NCBI GenBank assembly: GCA_963718665.1
Contig: OY970359.1
Coordinates: forward strand, 448,001 to 512,000
Source of the DNA: an uncultured Phycisphaerales bacterium
GTDB taxonomy: Bacteria > Planctomycetota > Phycisphaerae > Sedimentisphaerales > Anaerobacaceae
Length of the DNA: 64,000 bases
Direction of reading: 5' to 3'
Part shown: positions 1 through 55,097 of the stretch, one piece after another
Numbering within the stretch: position 1 is the stretch's first letter
Layout: the number at the start of each line of letters is the position of its first letter
Notes under the pieces: generated by a model
The model's database searches: none
Told to the model about the DNA's origin: nothing
What the model saw: only the letters and a program-made list of their open reading frames with translations
Translations under genes and position numbers: made by a program

Positions 1-1
1 C

Positions 2-208
2 GCAGGCATTCGAGGCCTCGACATCGCGGGCTGGTATTCCAGCCCCGTCCATCCGCTCAGTGATGCCGACCTCGCCAAAGTTGATTATCGCCGTGGCTGC
101 TGCCCGAGAGCCGAAGGCACAATTGAACGATTAGTCCACCTGCCGACCGGCCCATCGCTCAATAAACACAAATTAGAAGCGATGATGAGAATATTAAACG
201 GGGTTTAA
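2..208 (+). CDS. DegT/DnrJ/EryC1/StrS-family aminotransferase, C-terminal fragment (5' truncated by window edge)
   Basis: Frame 2 reads open to TAA at 206-208: ...GWYSSPVHPLSDADLAKVDYRRGCCPRAEGTIERLVHLPTGPSL..., matching the family C-terminal P.HP / CP.AE / LP motifs. Not in the ORF track. Confidence 0.6.
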   Translation, partial: AGIRGLDIAGWYSSPVHPLSDADLAKVDYRRGCCPRAEGTIERLVHLPTGPSLNKHKLEAMMRILNGV

Positions 209-588
209 GATTGACTATGGGCGAGGGCTAAGAGGACGAGGAAATAAGCCGTGAAAGATACGAAGGCGAGCAGAAAGCCGGCGAGGGCAGGGATTGCGGC
301 TGCGAAACTGGTTTTGTTGCGCCGGCAGCGTATTAACGACAATATGGCAAAGGTTACAGATGCAGCAGGCAGAATGGCGCAGAGAGTGTGAACGGTGTTA
401 TAAAAAGGAGTTTCCCTCACAAGGCAAATATCGGTAGAGCTGTTGTGCAGGGCTATAATCCTGTGGATTGAGGCATAGAAAAGTGGTATCGCGGCGACGG
501 CAAAAACGAGCGAAACGAGGCCCAGTCGGCTCGTCTTTGCACCGGGGCATACGGCTTCGATATTGTTTGTGTCCGGTTTTTCTGCCAT
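205..588 (-). CDS. Small hypothetical membrane protein (about 3 TM helices)
   Basis: ORF 205..663; likely start ATG 588 (MAEKPDT). Three hydrophobic stretches. Confidence 0.6.
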   Translation of the reverse strand: MAEKPDTNNIEAVCPGAKTSRLGLVSLVFAVAAIPLFYASIHRIIALHNSSTDICLVRETPFYNTVHTLCAILPAASVTFAILSLIRCRRNKTSFAAAIPALAGFLLAFVSFTAYFLVLLALAHSQS

Positions 589-703
589 TTTGGTTTCTCG
601 TAGTTTATACGATTGCCGGCGGCTATCGGCCCGGAAAATTATTCGCCACGGCAACGACCCCATAACCGCTACCCGCTGTTCACTAAATACAAGCGACTAA
701 CGA

Positions 704-1297
704 CTATCGACTGTCCGCTGTTTCTGGAAAATTTAACCTCGCAAATTCCCCGTGATATTTCTTCGCTGCTTTGTCGCGTGCTTTTGCCGCTTCTATCTCG
801 TTTTTGAATCCGCCTATCCAGTAACTTTTCCCCTTATGCTTGATTTTAACAGCCCAGCGATTTTGTGCTTTCTCGTAAGATACCCCGATAAACCGCGATG
901 TTGTCTTCGATTTGGTCTTTCGTTTGTTGCTCGAATTTTGTGCATGCGTCGCAAGACGCAGATTGTCCCTTCGATTATCTAACGACTCTCCGTTTTTGTG
1001 GTCAACAATTCGCCCCTTGGGTGCCCTCATAATCTCTCTGTGCAAATATACTGTTTTGGCTCCTCCCTTTTTGCTCCTGATGCCCCCTATGGCGTATGCT
1101 CTCCTTTCGTGACCGCCTAAGCACCACTTGATATGTCCAAAGCGGTAATAATCCGCCGGCTCAACTGTCGTCCATTCCCCCTCGCCTAAATATATCCTGC
1201 GAAACTCATACCCATATTTGTGCCTTCGATACAACATTACCGGCCAGGTGCAGATACGGTCTAACCAATTAGGTATCGTTACGTTAATCATTGTCAT
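704..1297 (-). CDS. HNH endonuclease with C-terminal AP2 DNA-binding domain (copy 1)
   Basis: YLHREIM...VDHKNGESLDNRRDNL (HNH) then SRFIGV...W...IG.F..EIEAAKARDKAAKKYHGEFARLNFP (AP2). GGAGAGG RBS upstream. Confidence 0.9.
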   Translation of the reverse strand: MTMINVTIPNWLDRICTWPVMLYRRHKYGYEFRRIYLGEGEWTTVEPADYYRFGHIKWCLGGHERRAYAIGGIRSKKGGAKTVYLHREIMRAPKGRIVDHKNGESLDNRRDNLRLATHAQNSSNKRKTKSKTTSRFIGVSYEKAQNRWAVKIKHKGKSYWIGGFKNEIEAAKARDKAAKKYHGEFARLNFPETADSR

Positions 1298-1599
1298 AAT
1301 GTCCTCTCCCTTGCCCTCGACTCAAGCTCCATAGGAACCGCAATCGGGGGTCCATTTTTTCGGAGCGCAGCGCAGATCCTCGGGGTTAGCTCCTTTGGTC
1401 TTCTGCCGGGAACCCATTTATTGTTCGTTGTTTATTGTTAGTTGTTCCTACAAACTATGAACCAACGACTAACGACTACAGATGATTTGCCTATCTTGGC
1501 GTGAAACTTGCCCTCCCGGGGCGAAATGTTTGCGCTTCTGCGCTACTACTGCCCTATCTTGGGCTTGCTACCTTGCGGCTCTCCGCTGCCTCTTTTTTT

Positions 1600-1695
1600 C
1601 GCCTGTTCTACTGCTCAACTTACTACTTTCCCGCGAAGCGCCGCCTGTTCTACTGCTCAACTTTCTACTCTCTCGCGAAGCGTCCCGCTTCGCGC
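1600..1695. repeat. Tandem duplication of an approximately 42-bp unit ending in a palindrome
   Basis: CGCCTGTTCTACTGCTCAACTT..CTAC....CGCGAAGCG occurs twice, followed by GCGAAGCG-TCC-CGCTTCGC. Confidence 0.75.
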
Positions 1696-1851
1696 GTCCC
1701 TCTATATATAGAGTGATTTTGGGGGTGTTTTAAGGAGTTACGAAATATTTTTTTCCTGCCCAAAATCGGTAAGTTCTTGTAGGAAAAGGAATAAAAAAAA
1801 TTTCAAAAATTCCCGGATTTTTTTGGGTATATAGGTAATCTCTAAAAAACA

Positions 1852-1915
1852 GGTTTAGCCGCCGCCGGCATGGCGGCTTCCTTATAATGTTTAGCCCGGC
1901 AACTTTATTGCCGGG
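1852..1915. repeat. Two REP-like hairpins with GTTTAG foot
   Basis: GGTTTAGCCGCCGCCGGCATGGCGGC (1852-1877) and GTTTAGCCCGGCAA-CTTTA-TTGCCGGG (1889-1915); reverse-complement relatives at 54977-55024 and about 10895-10945. Confidence 0.7.
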
Positions 1916-2107
1916 TCATAAAAATTGTAAAACCAATTTTATCGCGACCTATCCGGCGTAGCGCAAGCGAAGTCGGAAACGCGGGGCGGGAAAAAACGGT
2001 TGCTGTCACCATTATTCCCAACGGGGTTGGGTAAGTTGAAAACCCCCGGCAGAGAAATGTTTTTTTGTGAAAATAGGCGGTAGTTCTTAGTCTTCCTCTT
2101 TCGCATC

Positions 2108-3391
2108 TTACTGAGAGCGATCTTGGCTATCTTTAATTTTTGGCCAATGGCAATCTTTAAACTTTTTGCCACTGCCACAAGGACAAGGTTCATAAATTGA
2201 GACTTCTCTTTTTCTTACGACAAAATCCGCTTCTGAATCATCTAATGGAACTTGAGATGTATCTTTGGATATTTGAGAATTAACAAGATTCTTCATTCTT
2301 TCTACAAGTTTGGCTTCATCATCGCTTGATTTAGGTTCTATCCGCTTCCCACCAGGCTCCCAATGAGGAAAAAAACGTTTCCATAACTGGAAAGTAATAG
2401 ATTTTCCATTCGCAGGAGGTCCAAAGCCATATTGTGCTCCCCATACATCTTTTCTATGCTCTCCTAGTTTGCCCCACTCATACGACAGATTCTTCAAGTC
2501 TGCCTTTAAATCCTCCCCGGCGACAAATGTTTGGTCGGAATTTAGGAATGTTCCAGCAATAGACTTATGAAAATTGTCGTTAGAAACAAAAACCATGCAA
2601 AATGGCAAATAATAAATGTACTCTAAATCAATTTTATTAGTCGGCCTCGTTCCAATAAAGTTGCAAATCAATCCAAAGTAGAATAATACGAGGGCGTTAA
2701 AGCAGTAATATGCATAGGGTGAGAAGTCTTTAATCAACTTATATTCGCCGCGTTCCCACCTAATAAAAACACGCTGAGCCATTGGAAAATCGATACCAAA
2801 TTCCTCTATTAACCAGACCAAAAGATTCGTTTGATTATTTTCCTGTGACAAGAATTTGTTTACATATTGGTGCAATTGTTCAACACTATCAAATTGTTTC
2901 AATACTTTAATTTTTTGTTTGGCCGTATTTTTAAAAAGTTCCAAGTCTAAAGACCTTGTCGATTCCCGCCATTGCTCAGAAAGAATGTTTTCCGCTTCTG
3001 TGAAATTGCCAGATTTCCATTCATTAAGTGTTTTTTCTTCTGGCGAAACGTCAAATATTATCCCCTTCTTGCCAGAATCACCTTCCACAGGGACACCACC
3101 ACCTATATAAGGACGTCTTCTCATTTCCACCGGATACCCTAAAAGCGAATTTATAATCAGATATCTGTAATGTACGCTAATCGCTGAATCGAATGGCAGT
3201 ATTTTGTTTACCATACGCATTATTTGATCTTTGGAGACGGCTCCTTGCCTTGTTGGTTTTTTTAGGTCTCCAAGTATTTCTATGAGAAGGATCGGCGTTA
3301 TATTTATAAAATATAGTTTATTCAGAATAAATACCTCATCAAAAGAAAGTGACTGTAGTGCCGATTTGTCTAATATGATTGTTGGCCCCAT
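2108..3391 (-). CDS. SEC-C motif protein with a possible PIN-like N-terminal domain
   Basis: C-terminal PCPCGSGKKFKDCH (SEC-C). N-terminal IILDKS..., ITPILLIE and later DLEY....FVSND resemble PIN acidic motifs. Likely start ATG 3391. AT-rich. Confidence 0.7.
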   Translation of the reverse strand: MGPTIILDKSALQSLSFDEVFILNKLYFINITPILLIEILGDLKKPTRQGAVSKDQIMRMVNKILPFDSAISVHYRYLIINSLLGYPVEMRRRPYIGGGVPVEGDSGKKGIIFDVSPEEKTLNEWKSGNFTEAENILSEQWRESTRSLDLELFKNTAKQKIKVLKQFDSVEQLHQYVNKFLSQENNQTNLLVWLIEEFGIDFPMAQRVFIRWERGEYKLIKDFSPYAYYCFNALVLFYFGLICNFIGTRPTNKIDLEYIYYLPFCMVFVSNDNFHKSIAGTFLNSDQTFVAGEDLKADLKNLSYEWGKLGEHRKDVWGAQYGFGPPANGKSITFQLWKRFFPHWEPGGKRIEPKSSDDEAKLVERMKNLVNSQISKDTSQVPLDDSEADFVVRKREVSIYEPCPCGSGKKFKDCHWPKIKDSQDRSQ

Positions 3392-3498
3392 TATTACCCT
3401 ATTTATTACCAAATAATATGTGGCTGTTCCTATTTAATTAATCCGCAAAAATCCTATCGCGAGCTGTTCAATTAAAGAATCTTCAGAATATTCAGTAA

Positions 3499-4412
3499 TT
3501 ACTCGCCATCTAAACTATCTTGTGATAAGCATACAAAATTATCTAGTGACAATCTCATATGTTCTGAGATTATAATTTCGACGTGTCTTCTTTCAAAAAA
3601 GTCTTTGCCAAAACAACACTCTTTTAATTTTTTACCGCTTCCGCAGGGGCAATCTTCATCGGCACCAGTGTCCTCAGCTATCTTGATTCTACGGGTGCTT
3701 TCCTCAGTACGAGAAATTCGTAATGGATTACACTTTTTAACAAACACTAAATCTTTAAGATACTCAACACCAGTAAAAGGTATCGACTTATTATTAATGG
3801 CCATCATCTTGCATCTTTTGTCTGCTGGATTTTCTACCAAAGACACGCTGAGAAGATTCTTGATTTCCTTGACAATACCGTAGGCTAATTTCCCCCTATA
3901 AAGCTCCCCTGCTATATGCTCGCACTCTAAGCTTTCCATATTCCTACCACAGATGCTGCAATCTACTCTACTCACAACAGCTTCAATGCTGGAAAAAACC
4001 TTGTAAGGATAAAGTTTTTCTAATGCCTGTGCTTGCCTTTCCAAAAATTTGAATAAAGAAGTTCTATCAAAATGCGAAAATCTTTTGAGCAAGCGGAGAG
4101 AATCCAAAACATCTTGTAGCGTATCCCACGATCCAGGATAAGAGCCAGCACAGATTTGGGACCAGTATTGGGCGTAGCAATTTAACAGAGAAGCAAACCT
4201 GTCGAAGATAAAGCAATCATTATAAAATTCGTCCGGACGATTATTGGTTCCGGATTTCTCGTAATCATTTACTAGGGCACAAGTTTTTCTGCGACTTGTT
4301 TGGCGGATTCAAAATTTAAATTCGCCAACTCATTATAGTAGGACTCAAGGGTTCCTCGGCAATCAAGCCAATATTGTTGCAGACTCTCTGTTTTGAGCAA
4401 GATATTATCCAT
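3499..4412 (-). CDS. SEC-C motif protein with CSICG-CEH zinc-like motif; frameshifted as assembled
   Basis: ATG at 4412 overlaps the upstream stop. Adding one A to the A5 run (T at 4284-4288) fuses MDNILLKTESL...AEK with TCALVNDY...DVLDSLR into ORF 3499..4107. C-terminal CPCGSGKKLKECC. Confidence 0.65.
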
Positions 4413-6283: not shown

Positions 6284-6448
6284 TGCCCCATTCCTTATTA
6301 AAAATTGACGCCTTGCGTCATCCCCGAGAACCAGCTTCTTTGGTTTTGAAACAGGGGACCCATTTCAAAATCACCATCGCGCAGTTTACCCGCCGTGTAT
6401 TTTGGCGGGCGAATCCACAACTAAAGACTCAAAACTCAACACTAAACA

Positions 6449-9313
6449 CTAAATACTCTTTTCAGCTTTCGCATCCTCTTCGAGTTTTTTGCGGAGGTAT
6501 TTGCCCGTATAGCTGACCTCATTTTTGGTAATTTCCTCAGGCGTTCCCGTCGCGACAACCGTCCCGCCCCTTTCGCCGCCTTCAGGCCCAAGGTCGATTA
6601 TGTAATCCGCCAGCTTTACCACGTCGAGGTTATGCTCGATAACGACCACGGTATTGCCCAAATCAACAAGTCGCTGCAGAACGCTGAGCAGATTGTGAAT
6701 ATCGGCAAAGTGCAATCCGGTTGTCGGCTCATCGAGAACGTAGAGTGTATGCCCGGTCGCCGCCTTGCCCAGTTCCGCCGCAAGTTTCACCCGCTGGGCC
6801 TCACCCCCCGACAGCGTCGTTGACGCCTGACCGAGTTTGATATATCCAAGGCCGACGTCGTTGAGCATTTTCAAAAGGCGGATGACGGTCGGGAAGTTCG
6901 CGAAAAACTCAAGCGACTCCTCAATCCGCATATCCAGCACATCGGCTATATTCTTACCTTTACAAGTTACTTCCAGTGTCTCCGGATTATACCTTTTTCC
7001 TTTGCACTGCTGACAAGTCACATACACATCAGGAAGGAAGTGCATCTCAATCAACATTGTACCCTGGCCCTTGCAGTATTCGCAACGGCCGCCTTTGGTA
7101 TTGAAGCTGAAACGGCCTGCCTTGTAGCCGCGGATTTTGGCCTCGCGTGTTTTGGCGAAAAGCTTGCGAATCTCATCGAGGGCGCCGGTATAAGTCGCGG
7201 GGTTACTGCGGGGGGTTTTGCCGATAGGCGACTGGTCAATCTGGATAACCTTGTCGATTTGCGTTATGCCGAGGATGCTTTTGTGTTTGCCCGGATGCTC
7301 GCGGGAGCCATACAGGCGACGGCGTAACGCGGCCAAAAGCACCTGATTGACGAGGGTGCTTTTACCTGAGCCGGAAACGCCGGTAACGCCGATGAAAACG
7401 CCGAGTGGGAATTTGACGTCGATATCCTTGAGATTGTGCTCGGCAGCACCCCTTACCTCGACGCATTTGCGAAGATTGTATTTGCGTCTTCTCGAACCGA
7501 GTCCGATTCGCTTCCTGCCTCCGAGATAATCGCCCGTAAGCGACCTTGTGCAATTTATGATGTCCTGCAATTTGCCTTCGACCACCAGCTCACCGCCGTG
7601 TGCACCGGCGGCAGGGCCTATATCGATAATATGGTCGGCACTTCGCATAATGTCTTCATCGTGCTCGACCACGATGACGGTGTTGCCTATCTTGACAAGC
7701 CGCTGCAATATGCCAAGCAGCCGGTCGTTATCGCGTTTGTGAAGCCCGATTGTCGGCTCATCGAGAACATAGCAAACGCCGACAAGGCCGCTGCCCACCT
7801 GCGTTGCGAGGCGTATTCGCTGCGCCTCGCCGCCGGCAAGCGTGCCGCTCCTGCGGTCAAGCGTGAGGTATCCAAGACCGACATCGAACATAAAGCCGAG
7901 TCGCGCCTTTATCTCTTTCAATATTTGTTCGGCTATTACGGCCTTTTCGTTTTCGAGCTTGAGCTTGTTGAAAAACACCTGCGCCTTTTCGATGCTCATC
8001 GATGACAGCTCGTGAATGTTTTTGTTTCCAACCGTTACCGCGATTGCTTCGGGCCGTAATCTTGCGCCGTTGCACGCGGTGCAGTGCTGTTCGCTGAAAT
8101 AGCTGTGCAATTTTTCTTTGACGTATTCGCTTTCGGTCGCCTTCCATCTCCGCATCAGGTTCGGGATAACGCCTTCAAACCATATACCGTATTTGTCCTC
8201 ATCTTCCTTATTCGTGCCGTTCATCAGGAGACGTTTTATTTCATCGGGCAAATTCCCGAAAGGCATCGTCTTATCAACACCGAAGTCCCGGCAAAAACGG
8301 TTGACTAAGCGGTTGTAAAAAATATTCATCCGCTTGCCGCCTTTGCGCCAGGCGTCAATCGCGCCGTTTTCGAGCGACTTGGTTTTATCGGGCACAATCA
8401 GTTCGGGGTCGAATTCGAGTATTGTCCCTAAACCATCGCAGCTTTTGCACGCGCCATAGGGGCTGTTGAAGCTGAACAACCTTGGTGACAATTCTTCGAG
8501 CGACGCCTCAGGGTGCTGCGGGCAGGCGAATTTCTCGCTGTATATCGTCTCTTCCCACTTACCATCAGTTGAATCTGTGCCGGGTTTCTGGCTCAAAACC
8601 ACAATCGCCCCATCGCCGAGTTTCAACGCTGTCTCAACTGAATCCGCTAATCGAATTCGCACCGCCTCGTTTATAACCAGCCGGTCAACGACCGCGGCGA
8701 TATCGTGCTTTTTGTTCTTATCGAGCACGGGCGTGCCGCGAATATCGTAAATTCCCCCATCAACGCGCACCCGCACAAAACCTTCTCGTTGAATCGAGGC
8801 GAAGATGTCCTTGTGCTCGCCCTTTTTGCCGCGAATCAGCGGTGCGCAAATCTGCACCTTCGTCCCTTTGGGTTTGCTGATTAGCCAATCGACAATCTGC
8901 GATGAATGCTGGCTCGTAATTTCCTTGCCGCAAACCCGGCAGTGAGGCGTGCCGACTCTCGCGAACAGCAATCTAAAATAATCGTAAATCTCCGTCGTTG
9001 TCGCAACCGTCGAACGCGGATTGGCTGATGCGCTGCGCTGTTCAATCGCGATTGTCGGGGGCAGCCCGGTGATTTCGCCGACCGCGGGCTTTTGCATCTG
9101 CTCTAAGAATTGCCTCGCGTATGAGCTTAGTGATTCGACGTATTTGCGTCTGCCCTCGGCGTAAATGGTATCGAAGGCAAGCGAGCTTTTGCCTGAGCCG
9201 GAGATACCTGTGATGACAACCATTTTATCGCGGGGGATGCTCAGGTTGATATTCTTGAGGTTATGCTCCGCCGCACCGGTTATTTTGATGAACTTTTCCG
9301 TTTGCTCGCTCAT
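6449..9313 (-). CDS. uvrA: Excinuclease ABC subunit A
   Basis: Two Walker A motifs (GISGSGKS, GVSGSGKS), zinc fingers, LSGGEAQRVKLA, FSFNSPYGAC. Confidence 0.98.
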   Translation of the reverse strand: MSEQTEKFIKITGAAEHNLKNINLSIPRDKMVVITGISGSGKSSLAFDTIYAEGRRKYVESLSSYARQFLEQMQKPAVGEITGLPPTIAIEQRSASANPRSTVATTTEIYDYFRLLFARVGTPHCRVCGKEITSQHSSQIVDWLISKPKGTKVQICAPLIRGKKGEHKDIFASIQREGFVRVRVDGGIYDIRGTPVLDKNKKHDIAAVVDRLVINEAVRIRLADSVETALKLGDGAIVVLSQKPGTDSTDGKWEETIYSEKFACPQHPEASLEELSPRLFSFNSPYGACKSCDGLGTILEFDPELIVPDKTKSLENGAIDAWRKGGKRMNIFYNRLVNRFCRDFGVDKTMPFGNLPDEIKRLLMNGTNKEDEDKYGIWFEGVIPNLMRRWKATESEYVKEKLHSYFSEQHCTACNGARLRPEAIAVTVGNKNIHELSSMSIEKAQVFFNKLKLENEKAVIAEQILKEIKARLGFMFDVGLGYLTLDRRSGTLAGGEAQRIRLATQVGSGLVGVCYVLDEPTIGLHKRDNDRLLGILQRLVKIGNTVIVVEHDEDIMRSADHIIDIGPAAGAHGGELVVEGKLQDIINCTRSLTGDYLGGRKRIGLGSRRRKYNLRKCVEVRGAAEHNLKDIDVKFPLGVFIGVTGVSGSGKSTLVNQVLLAALRRRLYGSREHPGKHKSILGITQIDKVIQIDQSPIGKTPRSNPATYTGALDEIRKLFAKTREAKIRGYKAGRFSFNTKGGRCEYCKGQGTMLIEMHFLPDVYVTCQQCKGKRYNPETLEVTCKGKNIADVLDMRIEESLEFFANFPTVIRLLKMLNDVGLGYIKLGQASTTLSGGEAQRVKLAAELGKAATGHTLYVLDEPTTGLHFADIHNLLSVLQRLVDLGNTVVVIEHNLDVVKLADYIIDLGPEGGERGGTVVATGTPEEITKNEVSYTGKYLRKKLEEDAKAEKSI

Positions 9314-52978: not shown

Positions 52979-53006
52979 TTGACTTGCAGATATTGTTTGG
53001 TAAAAT
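52979..53006 (+). promoter_or_regulatory. Sigma70-type promoter upstream of the HNH-AP2 leader and IS
   Basis: TTGACT-N16-TAAAAT with extended -10 TG. Confidence 0.55.
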
Positions 53007-53118
53007 TCTAACCCGCTGGCAGACGCTGGCAGGAGGCAGGGATAGAAATCCCAAGTTTAGCGCCTTGTGCGCAAGGTAAATCAAACCAATTTTCGTTTTG
53101 TGTTTTGTTGTTTGATAT

Positions 53119-54161
53119 TGCTCTGTAGAAAAGATTGAAGCATAAGGTTTAGTCATGGCGATAAGTGTTAATAATAACAATAACTTAGGTTTCAGCCATA
53201 AACCGCGTTGGAAAGGATTCCACGATGGCCAAACACGGAGTTATGACCAAATCACCTGTTATGCTGGCAAAGCAGGCACTTCAGACAGCCACAACGGCAC
53301 TCTCGCCATATTCAGCCAATCGCTCACGCCACGATTTTACACAGGCACAGTTGTTCGCCATTTTGACTCTGCGACAGTTTTTTCAAACCGACTATCGTGG
53401 GATTGTACAGTTGCTGGCGGACTTCACGGACTTGAGAGCTGCGATTGGGTTGTCAAAAATTCCTCACTACACTACCCTTCAAAAAGCACAGCAACGTCTG
53501 CTAAAAAAAGGGCTTGGGACAAGCTGTTAGCCGCCATTTTCAGTATTGCCAGCCGCGATGGCTTAATCGAGGAACGCCCCGAGGCATCCATTGATTCGAC
53601 GGGGCTGGAAAGCCGGTTTGTCAGCCGACATTTTCTAATGCGTCAAGGCAAACATACCCAGCAATATCGCCGATGGACAAAACTTACGGTTGTCTGCCAC
53701 AATGCCAGCCATCTGATTGCTGCCGGCTTGGTCAGCACTGGTCCCAGCAATGATTGTTCCTACCTTATGCCGGCAGTTTCCCAGGCGGTAACTAATCTGC
53801 CTATAGACCGGCTTTTGGGTGATGCAGGATATGACGCAGAAGCCAACCATAAATTCTGTCGTCAGTATCTCGGCATCCGCTCGACGATTATCGCTATCAA
53901 CAACCGACGAGGTAAAAAAGGCGAGCTTACAGGCCATTACCGAAATCAAATGAAGAATAACTTCCCGAAACGTAAGTTTGGTCAGCGATGGCAAGTTGAG
54001 AGTGTTATGTCTCGCATGAAACGTCGTCTTGGCTACGCCCTTCGTAGCCGAACGAATGAATCTCGCAGTACCGAGTGCGTCATGAGAGTTCTGACCTACA
54101 ACCTGATGCTTCTCTATTTACTTTTCATAAAGAACTTTTAATTAAAGGTTTCTACAAAGCA
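53119..54161 (+). mobile_element. IS5-like (DDE) insertion sequence, 1043 bp
   Basis: Terminal IRs TGCTCTGTAGAAA (53119-53131) and TTTCTACAAAGCA (54149-54161), 12/13 match; flanks GTTTGATAT and GTTTGAGAT look like a 9-bp target duplication with one mismatch. Confidence 0.85.
53225..54141 (+). CDS. DDE transposase expressed by probable -1 frameshift
   Basis: OrfA 53225..53530 (DYRG, PHYTTLQKA) overlaps a -1 frame carrying IDSTG, GDAGYD, RWQVESVMSRMKRRLG; A7G slippery run at 53503-53510. Confidence 0.85.
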
Positions 54162-54310
54162 GTTTGAGATTTGAAACTTGGAATTTGGGATTTGTGGGTC
54201 CCCTGTTGCAAGCCGATGGAGCCGCCCCTGCCGTTTTGCAAAGCAAAACGAGACGCAGGGGTCTCCGCTACGCTTCGAGGATCTGCGCTATGCTACGAGA
54301 GGAGATAAGT

Positions 54311-54922
54311 ATGTTTACACAACTAACAATAAGGGTTCCCGTCTGCCTTGACCTAATTTTTGCATGGCCTGTATTGCTTTATCGCAAGGTAAAATACGGT
54401 CATCCATTTCGCAAGATTCCACTAGGCGAAGGGAGGTTCACGATTGTTGAGCCGGGGGATTTTTATCAGTTGAACAGGTTTAACTGGTGCGCGAAGGAAA
54501 ACGGGCCTCGAATTTACGCGGTGCGGTTAGTGGGCGATTCGAACAACAGGACAAAGATTATTTCGATGCACAGGGAAATAATGGGTGAGCCGGCGGGGAT
54601 GCTGGTTGACCATCACAATCGCAATACCTTAGACAACAGGAAAGAAAACCTTCGCTTGGCGACACATTCGCAGAACCAGTTCAATAAAGGAAAGACCACC
54701 AAAAAAACAACATCGCGGTTTATCGGGGTTTTCTTCGAGAAACAATCCGGCCGATGGGTAGCAAGAACCACAGTTGGGGGGAAAAGGATATGGCTTGGCA
54801 GATTCGATGATGAAACAGAAGCGGCGAAGGCATACGATGAGGCGGCGAAGAAATACCATGGGGAATTCGCACAGTTGAACTTCCCAAATCTCACCGCAGA
54901 GAACGCAGAGAACGCGGAGTAA
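54311..54922 (+). CDS. HNH endonuclease with C-terminal AP2 domain (copy 2)
   Basis: Start ATG 54311 after GAGGAG; MHREIM...VDHHNRNTLDNRKENL, SRFIGV...WLGRFDDETEAAKAYDEAAKKYHGEFAQLNFP; full-length paralog of 704..1297. Confidence 0.9.
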   Translation: MFTQLTIRVPVCLDLIFAWPVLLYRKVKYGHPFRKIPLGEGRFTIVEPGDFYQLNRFNWCAKENGPRIYAVRLVGDSNNRTKIISMHREIMGEPAGMLVDHHNRNTLDNRKENLRLATHSQNQFNKGKTTKKTTSRFIGVFFEKQSGRWVARTTVGGKRIWLGRFDDETEAAKAYDEAAKKYHGEFAQLNFPNLTAENAENAE

Positions 54923-55097
54923 AGTCGAATGTCCAATATCGAATACTAAATGTTGAAGTGAATTACGCAGCAATGCGCCGCCGTACCGGCGGCGGCTAAA
55001 CCCGCCGTGACACGGCGGGCTAAATACGGATACGGAAATGCACTACGAAAAACTGGACCCCAGATCGTAGTCTGGGGCTTCGCTGCGCTACGAGAAA

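Follow-up and report, generated by a model that had tools for sequence, protein, structure and literature searches.

The DNA analysed here, a window of 64 kb from the 2.61 Mb single-contig genome (G000 in the following) of an uncultured Phycisphaerales bacterium from a peat bog, contains two genes for proteins that combine an HNH nuclease domain with an AP2 domain. Copy 1 (paralog c1) is encoded on the minus strand and copy 2 (paralog c12) on the plus strand, and both follow a long non-coding leader rich in small hairpins (Table 1; coordinates refer to the window unless marked as genome coordinates). An initial annotation, made from the letters of the window alone, had put forward that two dispersed copies constitute a mobile system of a nuclease and a structured non-coding RNA. 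The two copies are real, but the family is far larger than had been noted and comprises 27 dispersed HNH-AP2 loci in the genome (29 matches, two loci being split by frameshifts), 25 of them intact and two frameshifted. In-frame stops were discounted as evidence for pseudogenes, the stop flagged in paralog c11 being its natural one.

Homology between the loci stops at the stop codon and fades near position -600, and neighbouring genes are not shared. Since it is confined to about -600 to +600 around the ATG and common neighbours are lacking, the repeated entity is the leader plus the open reading frame (ORF), that is the dispersed chromosomal unit of conserved non-coding leader and HNH-AP2 gene which the initial annotation had proposed. 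Each unit measures about 1.0-1.3 kb and consists of an upstream block of type I, II or III, a hairpin-rich modular leader, a ribosome-binding site (RBS) and the gene for a protein of 193-232 amino acids (aa). Paralogs c2 and c26 are followed, after a few hundred bases, by tRNA genes (L002 2385-2467 and L026 2239-2312, respectively).

The family was found in 17 of 18 genomes of the same genus in a first sample, with 2-32 matches each, the exception being G013 with none. It also occurs in genus g3, which belongs to another family, and weak matches were obtained in genus g5. A scan of species-representative genomes yielded 518 relatives; the best 80 of these 518 all reside in metagenome-assembled genomes (MAGs), labelled Phycisphaerales, Sedimentisphaerales, Planctomycetota or, in third-party assemblies, Pirellulales, which agrees with the Phycisphaerae presumed in the initial annotation. 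The relatives compared in this work are MAGs with a completeness of 80-97%, and related genomes are not independent of each other.

Both proteins encoded in the window match the Pfam family HNH_3 (39 and 42.3 bits in the two copies at a cut-off of 24.8; 6.4e-10 for copy 1). The Pfam AP2 domain scores 48.8 bits in copy 2 and 33.2 bits (6.3e-08) in copy 1, where it falls just below the cut-off of 33.3 and is backed by a fold search of the predicted structure. The AlphaFold model of copy 1 (pLDDT, the predicted local distance difference test score, 88.2) comprises an N-terminal helix (residues 10-28), a beta-rich region bearing the HNH motif and, at residues 139-185, the sheet and helix of an AP2 domain. 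A Foldseek search with this model matched it to AP2 domains of plants and, at 31% identity over 70 columns, to the homing nickase I-HmuI (1u3e). PHROGs assigned the protein to phrog_99, 'HNH endonuclease', at 6.6e-39. PADLOC returned a weak 'homing endonuclease' match alone, and no defence reading was drawn from it. Pfam and the fold search detected neither RuvC nor other parts of IscB in these proteins of 197-203 aa, only HNH_3 and AP2. Among viral contigs 533 relatives with up to 44% identity were found, and their matches start at about residue 29-33. The N-terminal extension that the initial annotation had noticed in both proteins thus appears as a lineage-specific helix without counterpart in the viral relatives; these roughly 30 aa are apparently specific to the chromosomal family.

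In an alignment of 24 intact paralogs the identity to copy 1 ranges from 38 to 61%, and the HNH residues D99, H100, N108, N112, N121 and N124 are invariant in all of them. The ratio of nonsynonymous to synonymous substitution rates (dN/dS), 0.13-0.35 in all five pairs computed, shows that the proteins are under purifying selection. Such a large family of divergent paralogs with a conserved AP2 domain would also agree with domesticated DNA-binding regulators, expanded in the manner of the ApiAP2 families and no longer acting as nucleases. We regard this as extremely improbable, because all 24 paralogs retain the catalytic DH and Asn of the HNH motif and the nearest relatives of the proteins are phage HNH endonucleases. 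The HNH-AP2 proteins are predicted to nick DNA.

A comparison of the upstream regions of all 27 loci revealed a common plan. After the block come a hairpin, a variable number of small hairpin modules (none to several), a short-period tandem tract (mostly 7 nucleotides (nt), rich in T/G or A), often another hairpin module, the RBS and the ATG, the modular hairpin-rich part extending over 100-300 nt. Type I blocks (10 copies including copy 1) terminate in ctatatatagaggg. Type II blocks (10 copies) contain phased T-tracts and operator-like palindromes such as aacagttgtatgatacaactgtt, and furthermore ttttcgtcaaaagcgcg...ccataggatagaggga. In blocks of types I and II, a TATA-like box stands directly before a hairpin whose stem varies among the copies. 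Type III (7 copies including copy 2) is characterized by a canonical sigma-70 promoter with TTGACT or TTGAAC, a spacer of 16-17 nt and TAAAAT or TGnTATAAT; in the genome, a type III profile detects only the seven type III HNH-AP2 leaders plus two weak matches to parts of module A, a hairpin module described below, in the leaders of c26 and c9. Among 113 distinct leaders from the source and related genomes, 57 are of type II, 21 of type I and 22 type III-like, 12 are unclassified and one is mixed. With a type II profile, built from 50 HNH-AP2 leaders only, nhmmer identified type I as a homolog of the 3' half of type II. In G000 this profile yields 11 full sites (10 at HNH-AP2 genes, one at a phage-like portal operon) and 10 partial sites, all of which are type I blocks; beyond these it gave just two weak matches, which concern its internal operator-like repeats.

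The block core is better conserved than the coding sequence (CDS) in all 45 pairs of type I units (75.1% vs 61.3% nt) and in all 21 pairs of type II units (79.6% vs 62.3% nt), and the divergences of block and CDS are uncorrelated (r 0.12 for type I, -0.18 for type II). Copies of the type I block of copy 1 with 88-95% identity are present in other species, and the block is 94-95% identical across species in which the best CDS match amounts to 68-71%. We take this as a sign of strong constraint on a putative multi-site regulatory region, combined with recombination between blocks and CDSs. When the block of copy 1 is searched against the genome with blastn, it matches only regions upstream of HNH-AP2 genes, except for a 41-nt match within the block of the portal operon. 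The last 220 nt of the 113 leaders fold with a mean z of -2.3 against dinucleotide shuffles (z<-2 in 62 of 113), and in 97 of 113 the sense strand exceeds the antisense strand in stability. Folding and strand bias together suggest RNA-level structure on the mRNA strand, to which composition may contribute.

The most distinctive hairpin module of the leaders is module A. A covariance model of its two-hairpin core (R1), built from 12 copies, gave 14 matches with E<1e-6 in the whole genome, and all 14 are located in HNH-AP2 leaders; the next match, at E=0.0013, is unrelated. In 24 genomes of the same genus 92 matches at E<=1e-5 were distributed over 19 genomes, and in 29 of 30 sampled loci the match is followed, at a distance of 66-385 nt, by the start of an HNH-AP2 gene on the same strand. 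In the source genome, all 10 type II leaders lack a match. Among 48 aligned copies (43 distinct), 89.6% of the cells are paired as opposed to 69.8% in shuffles, and the covariation score of 0.402 vs 0.122 was reached by none of 500 shuffles, counts that are inflated by the fitting of the alignment to the model and by the kinship of the sequences. Six of the nine pairs exhibit changes on both sides, G-U pairs occur, and one example pair is CG in 22 copies, AU in 14 and GU in four, with no unpaired cells. Different stems joined to the same linkers are plain in the raw sequences, and the compensatory changes in the 48 copies support the view that the stems vary in sequence and still pair. The end of another module, CGAGGATCTGCGCT (module B, see below), occurs 10 times in the genome with no more than one mismatch, eight times upstream of and on the same strand as an HNH-AP2 gene; this and the 14 of 14 for module A mean that the leader is shared more than by chance. 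A search of 19 loci (67,152 bases) against Rfam 15 at E<=1 assigned no family, HEARO included, to the leaders. All matches were two tRNAs and three sub-threshold, chance-like ones, none on module A or B; the initial annotation, too, had not recognized the motif as a described family.

The control blocks are not confined to nuclease genes. One type II block in the source genome, at genome 1659724-1660059, is not followed by an HNH-AP2 gene. It has the block, 5' hairpin, heptamer tract, hairpin module and RBS of the other leaders and runs into a phage-like operon for portal (SPP1_portal), scaffold and SU10 major capsid protein (7.7e-85), which continues with about eight more ORFs on the same strand (L278 8096-17819, corresponding to G000:C1 about 1,660,100-1,669,800). 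Upstream of the portal gene, the type II profile gave a match in nine of nine same-genus genomes fetched (E 3e-25 to 6e-79) and, in genus g3, in G020 (1e-17); matches were weak in two other genera and lacking in eight more. In the 1.3-kb stretches compared, the upstream flank of the operon is not conserved. Present as a single copy, the capsid gene has 84-96% identity within the genus and was found in 13 of 24 same-genus genomes (including the source); across the order, 14 of the 16 genera sampled have it. By sequence comparison, this is the pattern of a vertically kept phage-derived element, and the operon may be a gene-transfer-agent-like or a domesticated podovirus-like one. No large terminase was found in G000 with the three Pfam families used (PF03237, PF03354 and PF04466). 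In a relative, the single module A locus without an HNH-AP2 gene (L097 1340-3049, on G032:C3) precedes a gene for a 412-aa AAA_25 P-loop protein and is composed of a type I block, 5' hairpin, module A, a B-like hairpin, another hairpin module and RBS. Just a C-terminal fragment of an AAA_25 homolog is retained in G000 (genome 2387600-2388076, minus strand). The census of genes following type I and II blocks is complete for the source genome only.

The HNH-AP2 genes are therefore probably best described as homing-endonuclease-like nickase genes that stand behind a cassette of promoter and structured 5' untranslated region (UTR) which they share with a phage-derived operon, and with which they would be expressed. 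The same cassette before a capsid operon and a helicase-like gene points to an expression cassette and not to a private RNA partner. In detail, a type II block lies before the portal operon and a type I block with module A before the AAA_25 gene, the leaders are contiguous with the RBS, and type III leaders possess a sigma-70 promoter. The leader would act in cis, types I and II as homologous control blocks at the DNA level and type III as a canonical sigma-70 promoter, with putative transcription start sites within the leaders. Since the type I/II block is used in the genome only by 20 HNH-AP2 genes and the portal operon, we infer co-induction, and the nuclease paralogs may be switched on together with the portal-scaffold-capsid operon as a regulon of the phage-late type. 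Module A and the 5' hairpin would then be mRNA elements acting in cis on stability, translation or transcription processivity. Late operons of phages are controlled by comparable elements, for example lambda PR'-qut-6S RNA and the put stem-loops of HK022. The likeness lies in a conserved promoter region with promoter-proximal stem-loops before head genes; the differences are that neither an antiterminator gene nor a pause site was found here, that scans detected no T-run terminator within the type I/II leaders, and that the cassette stands about 20 times before nuclease genes.

The initial annotation had pointed to IscB, a protein of RuvC and HNH domains that works with a conserved omega RNA scaffold (HEARO in Rfam). 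HNH ORFs in many copies with a conserved structured non-coding region upstream are common to both systems. A leader that is processed to a structured RNA, binds the HNH-AP2 protein and guides or activates it would account for the tight linkage of leader and gene, the exclusive occurrence of module A in the genome and its position beside HNH-AP2 in all but one of the sampled loci, the covariation of its hairpins, and the N-terminal helix that phage relatives lack. Against this, module A is absent from all 10 type II leaders, module order and number vary among paralogs, and the same leader types precede the portal operon and the AAA_25 gene. The modules are tiny independent hairpins in a variable string, partly absent and shared with non-nuclease genes, and do not form a single conserved scaffold; Rfam recognizes none of them. 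The protein carries an AP2 domain of the type that binds double-stranded DNA and no part of IscB, and the leader continues without a break from the promoter-like block into the RBS of its ORF. The reading as a nuclease that works with an RNA, in the way of IscB, is thus not supported, and we consider it very improbable.

All sequences quoted in the initial annotation are present in the two leaders of the window. In gene orientation, copy 1 reads GAGGCA-[GCGG agag CCGC]-AAGGTAGCAA-[GCCC aagata GGGC] at 1592-1551 and [GCCC cggga GGGC]-AAGTTTCAC-[GCC aagata GGC]-AAATCA at 1522-1483, and model R1 matches genome 449497-449550 (65.1 bits; window 1497-1550) and genome 449551-449593 (29.9 bits; window 1551-1593). 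The module B stretches 1416-1369 and 54195-54289 have the common end CGAGGATCTGCGCT, followed by RBS and ATG, and T/G-rich short-period tracts precede both. Module B of copy 2 contains an inserted dispersed hairpin module, and the variant present in copy 1 recurs at three further sites in the genome. The direct repeat gttgagcagtagaacaggcg is restricted genome-wide to the leader insert of copy 1 (two of two occurrences). The insertion sequence (IS) reported in the leader of copy 2 is likewise real, with a DDE_Tnp_1 ORF, imperfect inverted ends of about 13 nt and a 5-bp TTTGA target duplication. Upstream of it, the leader is 91% identical over 116 nt to the uninterrupted leader of paralog c19. 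A second copy of the IS is found about 640 nt upstream of paralog c5 (G000:C1, about 1,714,100-1,715,150).

Table 1. Parts of the two HNH-AP2 units in the 64-kb window
Feature	Position	Strand	Basis
Terminator-like hairpin and T-run, directly 3' of the copy 1 stop codon	645..666	-	terminator scan/sequence
Copy 1 ORF (c1), 197 aa: N-terminal helix, I-HmuI-like HNH, AP2	704..1297	-	Pfam, AF2 model, Foldseek
Copy 1 RBS-proximal leader: GGAG-type RBS, two B-like hairpin modules (one = 1369-1416)	1298..1482	-	sequence
Copy 1 short-period T/G-rich tract	about 1440-1482	-	sequence
Copy 1 module A: two tandem versions, small hairpins with conserved linkers	1483..1593	-	model R1, covariation
Copy 1 leader insert: long hairpin gacgcgcgaagcgggacgcttcgcg and two direct repeats gttgagcagtagaacaggcg	1594..1665	-	sequence
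Copy 1 type I upstream block, promoter/operator-like, terminating in ctatatatagaggg	1666..1857	-	blastn, nhmmer
Copy 2 type III sigma-70-like promoter: TTGACT, 16 nt, TAAAAT	52979..53006	+	sequence; layout common to 15 type III leaders
Copy 2 leader part 1: module A (53033-53083), T/G-rich tract interrupted by the IS	53007..53115	+	sequence
IS in copy 2 leader, with DDE_Tnp_1 transposase ORF (53155-54141)	about 53116..54162	+	sequence, Pfam
Copy 2 leader part 2: remaining T/G-rich tract, module B (54195-54289), RBS	54163..54310	+	sequence
Copy 2 ORF (c12), 203 aa: HNH_3 and AP2	54311..54922	+	Pfam

Module B had been described as part of a nuclease-specific leader, and this is not borne out: it is an ordinary hairpin repeat found throughout the genus, also in G013 which lacks HNH-AP2 genes. 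Its 5' half occurs 45 times in the genome (no more than one mismatch), 11 times near units, and the exact pattern TCCCCTG-N20-32-CTCGGGGA 12 times, five of them in HNH-AP2 leaders. The exact pattern is present in 23 of 24 same-genus genomes, and a reversed control pattern gave zero everywhere. A dependence of the B-like repeats on the nuclease was rejected, as the counts of both are unrelated: G013 has six copies of the pattern and no HNH-AP2 match, G018 none and 17 matches, and G011 one and 32. RNAalifold found the outer stem of 5-6 bp alone to be conserved in module B, the inner stems differing among subfamilies, which continue as GACGCnnnnGCGTCAATT or CAGGCGGGnGGATnAGG. One such repeat, GGGTCCCCTG...CTCGGGGA, occupies window 6321-6358 (minus strand), with uvrA on one side and an mtnA-like gene on the other, and 11 further exact copies of it exist in G000. 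Among short tandem repeats, period-7 tracts built from a variety of heptamers are the most frequent, e.g. at window 1440-1482 and 690-720, and resemble the heptamer repeats of cyanobacteria; such tracts are also found behind the stop codon of the conserved gene at window 2-208, whether or not the species has the nuclease unit. Further dispersed hairpin modules, with four to more than 10 copies, are found in leaders and elsewhere, namely tggattcccgcttgcgcgggaatgaca, ttagccccgcc...ggcggggtt, ccccagatcgtagtctgggg and cccccgccgttttg...caaaacgagacgcggggg followed by tcttcgc..gctacga; examples are window 55053-55077 and the 8938-8965 region (508938-508965).

It could be argued from these findings that the leader modules are selfish or neutral interspersed hairpin repeats without any role for the nuclease gene. 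Mosaic repeats of this kind are represented by BIME/REP of E. coli and BOX of pneumococci, which have in common with the modules described here that short hairpins with conserved linkers occur in variable intergenic combinations, some of them genome-wide. In addition to module B, the many leader modules found elsewhere (166 of 519 high-scoring segment pairs lie outside units, in 97 intervals) and the tandem tracts with periods of 7, 14 or 21 nt (548 genome-wide after merging, 33 in leaders) speak for such an origin. Module A and the three block types, however, are not dispersed but tied to one gene family and one orientation, module A keeps its position and covaries, the block cores are better conserved than the CDS, and no RAYT-like transposase is involved. 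Module B, the heptamer tracts and a number of other hairpins agree with the repeat reading; the leader as a whole does not, and for it we hold this reading to be unlikely. Judged from its parts, each leader appears to be a mosaic of family-specific elements, i.e. blocks and module A, and general intergenic repeats.

Comparison of filled and empty sites shows that the genes are not fixed at syntenic positions. Beside the conserved gene at window 2-208, that is at the copy 1 site, a type I unit is present in G000 and G032, a type II unit in G006 and G017 and a type III unit in G033; units also occupy the site in G001 and G002, none is present in G012, G015 and G031, and only a 3' gene remnant of about 70 nt is left in G007. 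The closest homolog of copy 1 (83% aa identity, G002) resides at another site, and the copy 1 site of G002 is occupied by a 53% paralog. In G006 and G033 the CDSs are 84% alike over 561 nt behind leaders of type II and type III, respectively, and G033 and G032 have identical translations over the first 40 residues compared (from residue 2) at an overall identity of 75%. Presence, absence and decay at one site together with mixed pairings of leader and CDS imply that units are gained, lost, degraded and re-assorted. This matches the life cycle of free-standing homing-endonuclease genes, an analogy that falls short of proof. In such a scheme, units sitting alone between host genes would spread by break-induced copying with dispersed repeats serving as homology, and blocks and CDSs would be re-assorted by recombination. 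The unit does not have the features of an insertion sequence or transposon, as terminal sequences are not shared and no transposase is encoded; the sole IS is the separate DDE element in the leader of copy 2.

Free-standing HNH(-AP2) homing endonucleases of phages (phrog_99, I-HmuI-type) possess the same domain pair, catalytic motif and fold, and their genes, too, stand alone between host genes and are present or absent at one site. The genes described here differ in being chromosomal, with about 20-30 copies per genome across the genus, in the extra N-terminal helix of about 30 aa, and in the long conserved control block and modular leader that accompany each copy; homing is attributed to them by analogy only. 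Literature searches on AP2/HNH homing endonucleases in bacteria returned, among the matches listed, work on phages and plant AP2 factors, and a search on HNH endonucleases in Phycisphaerae a single unrelated preprint.

Several other features were noted around copy 1. A hydrophobic ORF of 152 aa (window 205-663, minus strand) lies between the conserved gene at 2-208 and copy 1. G017, G007 and G031 have it at this site, G006, G032 and G033 lack it there, and homologs were also found in G010, G003 and G005. Upstream of copy 1, two ORFs on the minus strand (2108-3412 and 3499-4107) end in SEC-C-type CPCGSGKK motifs. The stretch 2100-4200 is absent among the 150 listed of 465 DNA matches within the genus and looks like a variable region. 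Contigs of datasets X1-X4 covering window 1-4200 are fragmented, the depth peaks on multi-copy leader parts (1401-1540 and 1681-1820), and the joints represent paralogous leaders.

The link to the portal operon bears the possibility that the nucleases form a domesticated regulon for a gene-transfer-agent-like particle, in which 20-30 nickases, each with its own DNA specificity, would be induced along with the phage-like head genes and cut the chromosome in many places, thereby feeding DNA into the particles. A control block common only to the nuclease genes and the portal-capsid operon, the vertically kept single-copy capsid gene of the genus and of 14 out of 16 genera, the failure of three Pfam families to detect a large terminase and the purifying selection on the CDSs are all in accordance with this idea. 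Moreover, many phages are reported to encode an HNH endonuclease beside their packaging genes (PMC3592412, PMC12967558). In those phages the nuclease is tied to head and packaging genes as a single-copy HNH protein with a zinc-ribbon fold, encoded beside terminase and cos sites, whereas here the tie is a shared control block and the nucleases are dispersed and of the AP2 type, with no large terminase found by the three families. Among the matches listed by a literature search on gene transfer agents in Planctomycetes, none dealt with such a system, and the searches turned up no paper on a link of this kind in the phylum. On the other side of the balance, the HNH-AP2 family is limited to genera g1 and g3 (weak in g5) and the operon is order-wide, several genomes with many nuclease genes have no capsid match, and a copy number of 0-32 matches among close relatives, along with decaying units, is more typical of selfish genes. 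We therefore regard the regulon as quite unlikely. A bolder picture, to which we assign similarly little probability, is that 20-30 diverged nickases co-induced with a domesticated, terminase-poor phage-head operon would nick many defined sites for the benefit of a gene-transfer-agent-like particle or of their own spread through it, with module A, as a new class of leader RNA element, gating translation.

The view that we favour, nickase genes behind an expression cassette shared with the phage-derived operon, has to be set against a number of observations that weigh against it. Sigma-70 scans of the type I and II leaders revealed no convincing promoter on the gene strand, so that the term promoter refers here to architecture and position, and the 16 sequencing runs listed as matching window 600-2000 are all DNA metagenomes with no RNA run among them. 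The inflation of the covariation counts mentioned above belongs here as well. Co-occurrence with the capsid gene is not strict, given its presence in only 13 of the 24 genomes of the genus, and the HNH-AP2-rich genomes G002 and G011 (89-91% complete) have no capsid match. The block before the portal gene could be a remnant, namely the leader of an HNH-AP2 unit whose gene has disappeared. As to homing, the comparison between loci revealed neither terminal repeats nor target duplications nor a conserved 3' end of the units, and comparison of a single site did not yield a target sequence.

Genes of the homing-endonuclease type are usually investigated as selfish genes that occur singly in phages and introns. 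In the lineage described here, each small genome maintains 20-30 intact copies under purifying selection, and their control region is better conserved than the protein and shared with a vertically inherited, phage-like capsid operon. Module A is a candidate for a new leader RNA motif, and the family as a whole serves as a warning that a conserved region upstream of an HNH gene need not be a guide RNA. If the shared block reflects co-regulation, it would link a nuclease family to a possible gene-transfer-agent-like system in Planctomycetota.

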